From: Escherichia coli
GTDB lineage: Bacteria > Pseudomonadota > Gammaproteobacteria > Enterobacterales > Enterobacteriaceae
DNA length: 64,000 bases
Direction: 5' to 3' (one strand)
Assembly: GCF_017348835.2 (NCBI RefSeq)
Contig: NZ_CP071375.1
The position numbers were made by a program. Positions 26,701 through 29,700 of the stretch are shown here, piece after piece; position 1 is the stretch's first letter; each line of letters starts with the position of its first letter.

Positions 26701-29700
26701 TGATGGATTTCACCAGCAGGATAATGTTGGTACTGACTGATGGCGCTCTGGTCTGCGGCATTGTGGTATTGCTGTGGCCGATGATGAAAGAACAGAATGA
26801 ATAATTCTTGACTTTTTTGTTTACTGTTTATTAAAAAATCAACCGCATGGTGAATCCTCCTTGGAGGGGCTAAATGATCGAGTTTTAAGGGCACGTAGCG
26901 AGTTCTGTTTGATCATTGCAGAACTTAGCGGGAGGCGCCATGCGTACATCACTAGTGTTATTCCTTTTATCATTTTCCTTGTGAGTTCTGGCTGCGCATT
27001 GCGCAGCCTTTTTTTTATGACCTGCCACTGGCAGATGGTCATCCTGTGATTTGATTCCGCTTCCGCCGTCAGATGAACGAAGGCTGGTACCCGAACACGG
27101 CGATTGTGGGGCTGCAGGTGGATGCGGAGCAGTTTGGCGGTCAGCAGATGACGGTGAACTACCATATAAGTTCTGATTAGCCAGGTAACACAGTGTTATG
27201 ACAGCCCGCCGGTTCAGGCGGGCTTTTTTGTGGGGTGAATATGGCAGTAAAGATTTCAGGTGTACTGAAAGACGGCACAGGAAAACCGGTAGAGAACTGC
27301 ACCATTCAACTGAAAGCCAGACGGACCAGCAGCACGGTGGTGGTGAACACGGTGGCCTCTGAAAATCCGGATGAAGCCGGTCGTTACAGCATGGACGTTG
27401 AGTACGGTCAGTACAGAGTCATTCTGTTGGTGGAAGGATTCCCGCCGTCACATGCCGGGACCATCACCGTGTATGAAGATTCTCAACCCGGTACGCTGAA
27501 TGATTTTCTCGGTGCCATGTCGGAGGATGACGTCCGGCCGGAGGCACTGCGCCGTTTTGAACTGATGGTGGAAGAGGTGGCGCGTCACGCTGAGGAGGCG
27601 AAGAAGAATGCCGGAGAGGCGGAGACGTCAGCGAGGAATGCCGGCATATCAGCCAGTCAGGCAGAAGAGAGCGCTGCAAATGCTGACACTTCAGCAGGGG
27701 AGGCATCGGAGTCAGCCCGGCAGGCGGCAGAAAGTGCAGCCTCAGCAAAGCAGTCAGAGGATGCGTCCTCGTCCTCGGCTTCTGCGGCCGCTCAAAAAGC
27801 CAGTGAGTCATCACAAAGTGCAGCAGAAGCTGAATTGTCAAGAAAGACGGCAGAAAGTGCAGCCGGTAATGCAGCCAGGGATGCAACGACCGCAACAGAA
27901 AAAGCCCGGGAGTCAGCAGAAAGCGCACAGTCAGCGGAACAAAGCAGGATAGCGGCGGAAGAGGCCGTAAACCGAATCCCCACCGTGGTGGGACCTCCCG
28001 GGCCAAAGGGGGAACAGGGGCCCGCGGGTCCTCAGGGGCCGAAGGGTGATAAGGGAGAGCGCGGTGACACCGGCCCTGTCGGGGCAACCGGCGAACGGGG
28101 ACCGGCAGGTGATGCTGGTCCGGCAGGCCCGCAGGGGCCGAAAGGTGACATGGGAGAGCGGGGAGAGACCGGTCTGACGGGAAATGCAGGTCCACAGGGT
28201 CCAAAGGGAGATACCGGTGCGGCAGGCCCGGTGGGGGCAACCGGACCTCAGGGACCGAAGGGCGACCCGGGGGAGACACAAATACGGTTCCGTCTGGGGC
28301 CGGGAAACATTATTGAGACAAACAGCAATGGCTGGTTCCCGGATACAGATGGCGCACTCATCACCGGACTGACCTTTCTTGACCCCAAAGATGCCACACG
28401 GGTTCAGGGGTTTTTTCAGCATTTGCAGGTCAGGTTTGGTGACGGGCCGTGGCAGGATGTCAAGGGGCTGGATGAAGTGGGCAGTGATACAGGCAGAACA
28501 GGAGAATGACATGAATATACTAAAAAAACTTATGCAGCGTCTGTGTGGTTGCGGAAAGCATGATGGCCGTGAACACGTGCAGTCGCTTACAGCACAACTG
28601 CGACTGGGGCCGGCAGACATCCTGGAGTCAGATGAGAATGGCATTATTCCGGAGCAGGACAGGGTAATCACACAGGTGGTGATACTGGATACAGATAAAA
28701 AGCTGATACAGTGTGTGGTAAGACCGCTGCAAATCCTGCGTGCTGACGGGACGTGGGAAAATATTGGCGGGATGAAGTAACCCGACAGCTTCACAAAACC
28801 GGAGTCCGGCTCCGGTTTTTGTTGTCATGTCATGGTGATGTTTGTTAAGAAAGTAAAGATTGATTCATTTTGAAGGTTGAAATGTATGCTATCACCATCT
28901 TCTGTAAATTTGGGGTGTTCATGGAATTCTTTAACCAGAAACCTGACTTCTCCTGACAGTCGTATTTTATCCTCTGTAAGGGATGCAGCTGCTAGCTCGG
29001 ATAATGGGGCGCAAGTAAAGGTGGGCAACAGAACATATCGTGTTGTTGTCACTGATAATAAGTTTTGCGTTACAAGAGAAAGTCATAGTGGTTGCTTTAC
29101 TAATCTGTTGCACAGGCTGGGATGGCCTAAGGGAGAGATTAGCAGGAAAATTGAGGTGATGCTGAATTCATCGCCAGTGAATAGGGCTATGGAAAGAGGT
29201 GCTGTTCATTCGAATAGACCTGATTTACCTCCTGTTGATTATGCACCGCCAGAGTTACCGAGTGTGGACTATAACAGCTTGCCTGTGCCTGGTAATGTTA
29301 TTGGCAAAGGGGGTAACGCTGTAGTATATGAAGATGCTGAGGATGCAACAAAAGTCCTGAAGATGTTTACTACATCTCAAAGCAATGAAGAGGTAACAAA
29401 CGAAGTTCGTTGCTTCAACCAATATTATGGTGCCGGGAGTGCAGAAAAAATATATGGCGATAATGGCGATATTATTGGTATTAGAATGGATAAAATAAAT
29501 GGAGAATCGCTTTTAAATATTTCGTCCTTGCCGGCACAGGCTGAGCATGCCATTTATGATATGTTTGACAGGCTTGAGCAAAAAGGAATTCTTTTTATCG
29601 ATACAACAGAGACAAATGTCTTATATGATCGCACGAGAAATGAATTTAATCCAATAGATATATCATCTTATAATATTTCTGAACGTTCATGGAGTGAAAA

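Follow-up and report, generated by a model that had tools for sequence, protein, structure and literature searches.

We analyzed a 64,000-nucleotide (nt) stretch of DNA from Escherichia coli (NCBI RefSeq assembly GCF_017348835.2, contig NZ_CP071375.1; the whole stretch is referred to as the window). Over the window, identity to the pig isolate E. coli PE164 is 100%. The window contains a prophage that occupies the lambda attachment site of that strain (ybhC, then int through espJ, then ybhB-bioA). Two adjacent genes of this prophage are our subject: stf, which encodes a collagen-like side tail fiber, and a small open reading frame (ORF) that encodes a protein of 89 amino acids. Annotation by the Prokaryotic Genome Annotation Pipeline (PGAP) and mapping of deletion scars (see below) indicate that the head and tail genes, gene J and the lysis module are gone from the prophage. 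The original prediction, made from the sequence, of an orphan fiber gene bordering the nleH-cif effector locus on its upstream side was therefore correct.

The fiber gene, stf (27241..28509), encodes a fiber of the EPclA type that is 422 amino acids long and has four parts, identified from the ORF, Pfam matches and composition. (All features are on the plus strand unless indicated.) The N-terminal domain, PfN (residues 1-133; 27241..27639), is the tail-attachment end shared with lambda Stf and matches PF08400 (E = 1.2e-68, profile positions 1-133 of 134). PfN also matches chain 9e7m_Ta, 'Tail fiber protein' (residues 1-93). It is followed by PCoil (residues 134-250; 27640..27990), which has 117 amino acids (approximately 116 in EPclA), is rich in Ala, Ser and Glu, aligns without gaps to EPclA proteins of 437 amino acids, and corresponds to a trimeric coiled coil in EPclA. 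In residues 101-250 of Stf, the most abundant amino acids are Ala (44 residues), Ser (25) and Glu (24). Next is a collagen domain of 32 unbroken Gly-X-Y triplets (residues 251-346; 27991..28278; PF01391), the longest such run in the protein. The C-terminal domain, PfC (residues 348-411; 28282..28473), is a trimerization knob that matches the entire profile of PF06820 (E = 4.7e-35, positions 1-64 of 64). These assignments bear out the lambda-like N terminus, the Ala/Ser/Glu coil and the 32 triplets that had been predicted for this 422-residue protein. The PGAP product name is 'prophage tail fiber N-terminal domain-containing protein', and in a search of PHROGs both Stf and the small ORF matched tail-fiber families. 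Reading by eye, we saw no obvious N-terminal signal sequence in either protein.

Judging from these sequences, the fiber is complete and not truncated. The original prediction implied that it was cut short or that its C terminus was incomplete. This turned out to be incorrect because the protein has a full-length PF06820 end and, apart from one in-frame deletion, is identical at 420 of 422 residues to the 437-amino acid fiber of the intact J-lom-stf prophage of strain 95NR1. The deletion removed 45 nt (five collagen triplets) between direct repeats, and its junction is at 28224/28225. Collagen length varies from 15 to 38 triplets among relatives, and the exact 422-residue allele was absent from a collection of 15 billion proteins. 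We looked for a domain beyond PfC in the fibers of intact relatives and found none.

The design of the fiber is that of EPclA, described by Ghosh et al. in 2012 (PMC3368898). Both consist of the four parts PfN-PCoil-Col-PfC, and they agree in their N-terminal (MAVKISG...) and C-terminal (...DTGRTGE) sequences. They differ in that the window fiber has 32 triplets (96 residues of 422) and the commonest form has 37 (437 amino acids), and in that the window fiber is in a prophage that has no tail to which it could attach. EPclA proteins range from 389 to 470 amino acids and differ by whole triplets (PMC3368898). EPclA from O157:H7 forms trimers, shaped like a dumbbell, that contain a true collagen triple helix, with the circular dichroism spectrum of collagen, and a trimeric coiled coil; PfC alone trimerizes in vitro, and the PfC knob re-nucleates the helix (PMC3368898). 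Based on more than 90% sequence identity to recombinant EPclA, we infer that Stf would form a trimer with a collagen triple helix. The PfC knob of the fiber, a small all-beta domain, would trimerize and nucleate that helix.

The relationship to lambda Stf is limited to the N-terminal part. The gene is in the place that stf (orf-401/orf-314) occupies in lambda, after J and lom, and in both cases a small gene follows the fiber gene (tfa, or orf-194, in lambda). Residues 1-153 of Stf are 75% identical to residues 1-160 of lambda orf-401, and window positions 27165-27851 are 77% identical in DNA sequence to lambda 19574-20239. Homology ends at approximately codon 200 of stf, reappears over the final 26 codons of tfa (31519-31596), of which a 3' remnant survives, and then is found again in the attachment region (34076-34300). 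Thus, the coil-collagen-PfC sequences, the small ORF and the effector genes sit in place of distal stf and most of tfa, and coil, collagen and PfC stand where lambda Stf has its distal Pf2 repeats and its receptor-binding end. The fiber is not an ortholog of lambda Stf over its full length: it had no significant match to orf-314 and no match to PF03406. It is shorter than lambda Stf because its distal part follows a different, described design, that of EPclA.

The small gene (28511..28780) is a stand-alone PfC gene, homologous to ORF68 of phage Sp5 and to 'gp59' of phage phi24B. It was predicted to begin 2 bp after stf; it does follow stf directly, although only a single nucleotide separates its ATG from the stop codon of stf (TGA-C-ATG). 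A Shine-Dalgarno sequence, AGGAG (28500..28504), lies within the last codons of stf. The two-gene unit is closed by a hairpin resembling an intrinsic terminator, AAACCGGAG-UCC-GGCUCCGGUUU with a U-rich tail (approximately 28795..28826; -21.2 kcal/mol, z = -4.3). Residues 28-89 of the protein match PF06820 (E = 1.8e-34), which is its sole Pfam domain, and the protein aligns with phrog_576 over positions 1-89 of 89 (E = 2e-58). In an AlphaFold2 model, PfC is preceded by a short amphipathic helix (residues 3-11) and a flexible linker. The PfC of the small protein is 35% identical to residues 349-410 of Stf (E = 2e-11). By these sequence comparisons, the small protein is a paralog of the fiber's own C-terminal PfC trimerization domain.

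The small ORF had been regarded as odd. It is not: it belongs to a recognized family, is identical in intact phages, and has been noted before as ORF68 of Sp5 (PMC5155283). What did hold is that this 89-residue ORF, with its CGCGKHDGREH cluster, is unlike the lambda tail-fiber assembly protein. BLASTP against lambda Tfa gave no match at E <= 10, the Tfa family PF02413 was not matched (there was no Pfam match besides PF06820 at E <= 0.01), and a scan of NCBIfam gave no family. Two findings had been named as arguing against the original prediction, a complete Stf C terminus and an 89-residue ORF recognizable as a tail-fiber chaperone. We found the first and did not find the second.

The family to which the small protein belongs is narrow. 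There were 57 matches to the small ORF among 1.84 billion representative proteins, most of them near-identical fragments. The exceptions were a chimeric protein (P0030), the form from Salmonella, and two marginal matches to long proteins. A profile search found 259 proteins, and the named matches among those listed were from E. coli, E. albertii, C. rodentium and Salmonella.

We considered two specific roles for the Cys-containing N-terminal part of the small protein and rejected both. A metal site formed by CGCGKHDGREH was rejected as a feature of the family: the 10-residue insert is missing from the Salmonella orthologs, which have a different Cys pattern at that segment (HCLSGGDK or HCLFGCDK). 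In addition, AlphaFold2 predicts disorder for the segment, and positions 19-20 differ among E. coli sequences. A lipoprotein, suggested by L-C-G-C, was rejected for want of a hydrophobic signal sequence. Only 13 residues precede Cys14, including Lys5, Lys6, Gln9 and Arg10; there is no hydrophobic region of at least 7 residues, and residues 3-11 are the ones modeled as an amphipathic helix. Moreover, the second Cys is absent from the Salmonella protein P0083.

We found that stf and the small ORF constitute a fixed two-gene module that is known, common, and ordinary for pathogenic E. coli. The intact 95NR1 prophage has the order J-lom-stf-small ORF-nleH-cif, and its small ORF encodes the identical 89-residue protein (WP_001023459.1). 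This exact protein is encoded on at least 996 contigs. We compared 79 related loci. The small ORF was 89 codons long in all 79, the gap to stf was 1 nt in 78, the upstream ORF ended in PfC in 77, and the sequence of the junction, ACAGGAGAATGACATG, was identical in 76. The same terminator hairpin motif followed the small ORF in 65 of 67 related loci, and the 1.5 kb downstream of the module was AT-rich (mean GC content, 40.5%). In the window, GC content declines along the region, from 59% in stf to 49% in the small ORF and approximately 40% in nleH and cif.

The module is also found in phages. In a collection of 50,697 phage records, 296 had the small ORF and 296 had a PfC of the Stf type, with identical breakdowns by organism, and these small ORFs were 80-99% identical to that in the window. 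We looked for intact phages lacking the 89-residue ORF, and it was not missing from them. Of 5,426 complete E. coli genomes, 692 (~13%) contained the whole unit. Among the phages that have it are the long-tailed, plaque-forming 2B8 and lambda h434 (a laboratory hybrid) and the short-tailed Shiga toxin (Stx) phages, whose EPclB fiber bears the same distal cassette. Virtually every sequenced Stx phage, whether long- or short-tailed, has the module.

Two short-tailed Stx phages, Sp5 and phi24B, have a distal cassette (collagen-PfC-small ORF; locus L062) that is nearly identical to that in the window. The fiber and small protein are ORF67 (ECs1228) and ORF68 in Sp5 and gp61 and 'gp59' in phi24B, and the small ORF has the same length, 89 amino acids, and the same position as in the window. 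The fibers themselves are of the EPclB type; they have another N terminus, suited to a podovirus tail, and two collagen segments split by a Pf2 repeat. Unlike the fiber in the window, they are essential parts of a working virion.

A more distant pair is present in Salmonella enterica (locus L088), where a 468-amino acid PfN...PfC Stf is followed by a 79-amino acid ORF that consists of PfC only (P0083), with a conserved position of the ribosome binding site. As in E. coli, the pair is downstream of J and upstream of an effector gene, in this case for a SopA-like type III secretion system effector. It differs in that the shaft is made of Pf2 repeats and has no collagen, the small ORF overlaps the 3' end of the fiber gene by 23 nt, and the 10-residue Cys/His-rich insert is absent. 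A 452-amino acid protein with a GDSL-lipase domain is encoded between J and the non-collagen fiber at this locus (4193-7240).

The small gene is under purifying selection and has been for a long time separate from the fiber. The pairwise ratio of nonsynonymous to synonymous substitution rates (dN/dS) was 0.11 for the small ORF and 0.09 for its PfC part. For Stf, dN/dS was 0.10 in PfN, 0.66 in PCoil, and 0.21 in PfC; that is, PCoil was the least constrained segment of the fiber. Between E. coli and Salmonella, the PfC domains of the small ORFs were 60% identical and those of the fibers 39% identical, and cross-type pairs were 33-40% identical. Because the small ORFs are closer to each other across genera than are cross-type pairs, the duplication of PfC is old, with both copies retained since. 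Exact DNA matches between the PfC coding segments of the two genes are at most 10 nt long.

The sequence upstream of stf contains a record of how the module was orphaned. We mapped this region onto the intact J-lom-stf prophage of strain 95NR1 (L002). Sequence up to window position 27065 corresponds to that downstream of Q. It is followed by a 31-nt piece of tail-assembly gene I (27061..27091; 100% match to L002 10603-10633, within the gene annotated as tail assembly protein), 83 nt from the interior of gpJ (27085..27167; 95% match to L002 12001-12083), and then the last 12 nt of lom with the native lom-stf intergenic region (27165..27240; 100% match to L002 from 15503 on, where lom ends at 15514 and stf starts at 15579). 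The original statement that no head, tail or J genes remain is thus true of the genes, but the scraps of gene I and gpJ are still there. The gpJ scrap overlaps its neighbors by 7 nt and 3 nt, which gives at least three separate junctions; the prophage thus underwent at least three deletions, with junction overlaps of 3-7 nt. The deletions took everything that lay between the Q-proximal genes and a point 76 nt upstream of stf, that is, the lysis genes through lom. The remaining intergenic region contains a terminator-like hairpin found by scanning, AGCCCGCC-GGTTCA-GGCGGGCT followed by TTTTTT (27203-27224; fold, -19.8 kcal/mol).

The deleted configuration, at 100% identity, is common only to PE164 and F2_81. 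Because this arrangement was found only in these two strains, the loss of the tail region is recent and lineage-specific. Other strains have differently eroded prophages at the same site. In STECUZB006, stf has lost its N terminus and is fused to a fragment of J, and TB4019 has a partial J. Comparison with these relatives shows that the module in the window is probably intact because the deletion was recent and ended just upstream, and not because the cell needs the fiber.

A later stage of decay is present in Citrobacter rodentium ICC168. There, an island next to lifA/efa1 (L092, 5479-6237) has a relic of stf, 166 amino acids long, in which PfN is fused to PfC, and a small ORF with a frameshift at a run of A's and an internal deletion of 4 amino acids. 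In L090, the same island from another, nearly identical C. rodentium assembly, the small ORF is followed by a gene called as NleG. This is the same pattern of a fiber relic beside effector genes. The independent decay of stf and the small ORF in relatives argues against selection for the module in lysogens.

Several proteins in the databases are chimeras in which the small-ORF PfC is fused to Stf PfC, collagen, J or Lom fragments (P0030, P0108, P0116 and P0016). All of the joins are out of register and look like deletion scars, indicating that this region is often a deletion end-point.

Based on these results, we think it probable that the locus consists of a complete EPclA-type fiber and a stand-alone PfC paralog that were orphaned by deletions and have been kept passively by their position next to nleH-cif. 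Effector loci outlive the phage that delivered them, and the window holds a routine relic of prophage decay in an attaching-and-effacing E. coli.

The function of the small protein has to be considered in the intact phage. There it would be made by co-translation with the fiber and would form a PfC-type trimer. This trimer would bind the distal knob of the fiber as a dispensable accessory or tip subunit and would modulate adsorption on natural hosts. We tentatively favor this accessory or tip-subunit role over that of a Tfa-like folding chaperone, although we would not call it probable. A more specific proposal is that the paralog is a sub-stoichiometric subunit of the virion, a second knob or an adaptor on the distal end of the collagen fiber that tunes adsorption to hosts bearing O-antigen. 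This version is possible, but somewhat more doubtful than the general one. If true, the small protein would be a new kind of fiber partner, a free copy of the fiber's trimerization domain that is neither of the Tfa nor of the gp38 type, and its presence could explain why the lateral fibers of Stx phages seem not to bind BamA. The role of the small gene would bear on how phages that carry Stx and effectors find new hosts.

Genetic and proteomic findings by others favor an accessory role over that of a chaperone, as does the trimerization of recombinant EPclA in the absence of the small protein (PMC3368898). Mondal et al. (2016) deleted Sp5 genes systematically and in frame, and tested the resulting mutants on K-12 (PMC5155283). 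On K-12 MG1655, the fiber gene ORF67 was essential and ORF68 was listed among the non-essential late genes (PMC5155283). In addition, the supplementary proteome of a preprint on the cryo-EM structure of phi24B has two unique peptides of the small protein ('gp59') in purified virions, ADGTWENIGGMK and VITQVVILDADKK, with 3 peptide-spectrum matches each compared to 38-47 for C-terminal peptides of the fiber (bioRxiv 10.64898/2026.04.10.717836). The row of the table is labeled 'Spike or just gp59?', and the main text of the preprint is silent on it (bioRxiv 10.64898/2026.04.10.717836).

Several points weigh against an accessory subunit. At 3 peptide-spectrum matches each, the peptides in phi24B virions could be carry-over. 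The dispensability of ORF68 is known from assays on rough K-12 alone. In a single-chain AlphaFold2 construct, three Stf C termini and three small proteins were connected through (GGGGS)5 linkers; with a small paired alignment, the model was uninformative (mean pLDDT, 33.7; pTM, 0.26). Lastly, the position next to the fiber gene is the classic one for a chaperone, and the gene is labeled 'tail fiber assembly chaperone' in the record OM418627.

It is possible, though rather unlikely, that the 89-residue protein is such a chaperone, a non-obligatory, functional analog of Tfa whose PfC fold templates or stabilizes trimerization of the fiber PfC and which is not a component of the virion. In addition to the label, the gene lies directly 3' of the fiber gene with translational coupling, as in stf-tfa, and it co-occurs strictly with fibers that end in PfC. 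The low level of the small-protein peptides in virions is consistent with this reading, as is the finding that PfC alone failed to be expressed without a thioredoxin tag (PMC3368898). However, full-length recombinant EPclA folds in E. coli to stable, collagen-containing trimers without the small protein (PMC3368898), the fiber of Sp5 is essential and ORF68 is not, and the small protein has no similarity to Tfa or PF02413. A paper on the Stf of Gifsy-1 makes no mention of Tfa, a chaperone or collagen (PMC12312913).

Mondal et al. suggested that ORF68 is a reservoir for variation of the fiber, and they found no frameshift or slippery signal (PMC5155283). In this proposal, the small ORF is a silent relic of duplication, an extra copy of PfC that can enter stf by recombination or be joined to it by frameshifting. 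The small ORF is indeed paralogous to the C-terminal domain of the fiber, there are chimeric proteins in the databases (P0030 and P0108), and the authors of the phi24B work put frameshift fusions of the fiber and the small ORF into their mass spectrometry database. Nonetheless, we consider a reservoir very unlikely. With no exact match longer than 10 nt, the two PfC segments offer no substrate for homologous exchange, and none of the collagen- or Pf2-linked PfC domains that we examined was of the small type, except for the deletion scar P0108. The chimeras are out-of-register scars. The Shine-Dalgarno sequence and the ATG are conserved, and dN/dS is 0.09-0.11. The conserved start signals favor independent initiation of the small ORF. 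We also considered a programmed frameshift that would fuse stf to the small ORF, and rejected it. Relative to stf, the small ORF is in the +1 frame. Although this frame has no stop codon over the 132 nt upstream, shifting within that overlap would delete half of the Stf PfC and so destroy it.

The accessory-subunit reading concerns the intact phage. In the lysogen, an alternative to passive retention is that the module is kept by selection, either because the collagen-like protein acts as a bacterial adhesin or because the module is a conduit for transcription, with Q-dependent read-through from a pR'-like promoter to nleH-cif. Just 3' of the intact Q there is a promoter-like sequence (TTGCAA-17-TATACT) and a terminator-like hairpin that together resemble the pR'/tR' pair (25617-25700). 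The deletions have put stf, the small ORF, nleH and cif approximately 1.6-4.3 kb downstream of this pair, with stf now ~1.6 kb from it. Because of this move, Q-dependent (that is, SOS-inducible) read-through from the pR'-like site into the effector genes is conceivable. In addition, remnants of stf recur next to effector loci in prophages that were degraded independently. On the other hand, there are three terminator-like hairpins in the path of transcription, neither protein has an obvious N-terminal signal sequence, and EPclP expression is linked to phage induction. Furthermore, STECUZB006 stf lost its N terminus, and in C. rodentium the fiber is the internally deleted 166-residue relic and the small ORF is frameshifted with its 4-amino acid deletion. 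Selection for the module in lysogens is therefore very improbable, and we retain passive persistence beside nleH-cif as the explanation.

The idea we started from, that a truncated lambda Stf is followed by an unrelated protein with an unusual Cys/His cluster, is hardly credible. In its favor are the shorter length of the fiber compared to lambda Stf and the absence of distal lambda Stf sequence and of Tfa. However, the C-terminal domain of the fiber is complete, the gene is nearly identical to those of intact phages, and the small ORF belongs to PF06820 and phrog_576, with a Cys/His segment that is predicted to be disordered and is absent from the Salmonella orthologs.

The rest of the prophage is also eroded. 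According to the PGAP annotation of a region identical to the window, the early part has, in order, int, xis, IS3, kil, cIII, ral, sieB, a gene for a cI-like repressor, cro and cII. These are followed by a truncated nin region, lpxR, Q, two small genes and then, directly, stf. The IS3 element splits the early-left region (15065-16278). Replication genes are missing: cII abuts a fragment of ninE, and O, P, ren and ninB are gone (21523-21857). The gene lpxR (23511-24470, minus strand), encoding lipid A 3'-O-deacylase, is cargo of the prophage and is located between a truncated antiterminator gene fragment and an intact ylcG-Q.

To the right of stf are the small ORF, nleH, cif, remnants of an integrase gene and of tfa, and frameshifted NleG-like and EspJ genes. 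The NleG-like (31758-32332) and EspJ (33231-33883) genes are intact in relatives. The frameshifted integrase-like remnant (30949-31475) and the tfa remnant lie between cif and the NleG-like gene. The tfa remnant (31519..31599), which PGAP calls 'tail fiber assembly protein, incomplete', is the 3' end of a lambda-type tfa located beyond nleH and cif. It spans Tfa residues 168-193 with 77% amino acid identity, and window positions 31522-31580 are 95% identical in DNA sequence to lambda 22477-22535. Similar scraps of tfa border effector cassettes in two relatives (L003 and L004), which suggests that effector cassettes have been exchanged at tfa-proximal sites.

The classical laboratory hybrid phage lambda h434 imm21 (L005; OM418627; 4686-9648), which has the host-range region of 434, encodes a 437-amino acid collagen-like Stf and the 89-residue ORF, the latter annotated as noted above. 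It also keeps remnants of NleB, NleC, NleH and NleD-like effector genes.

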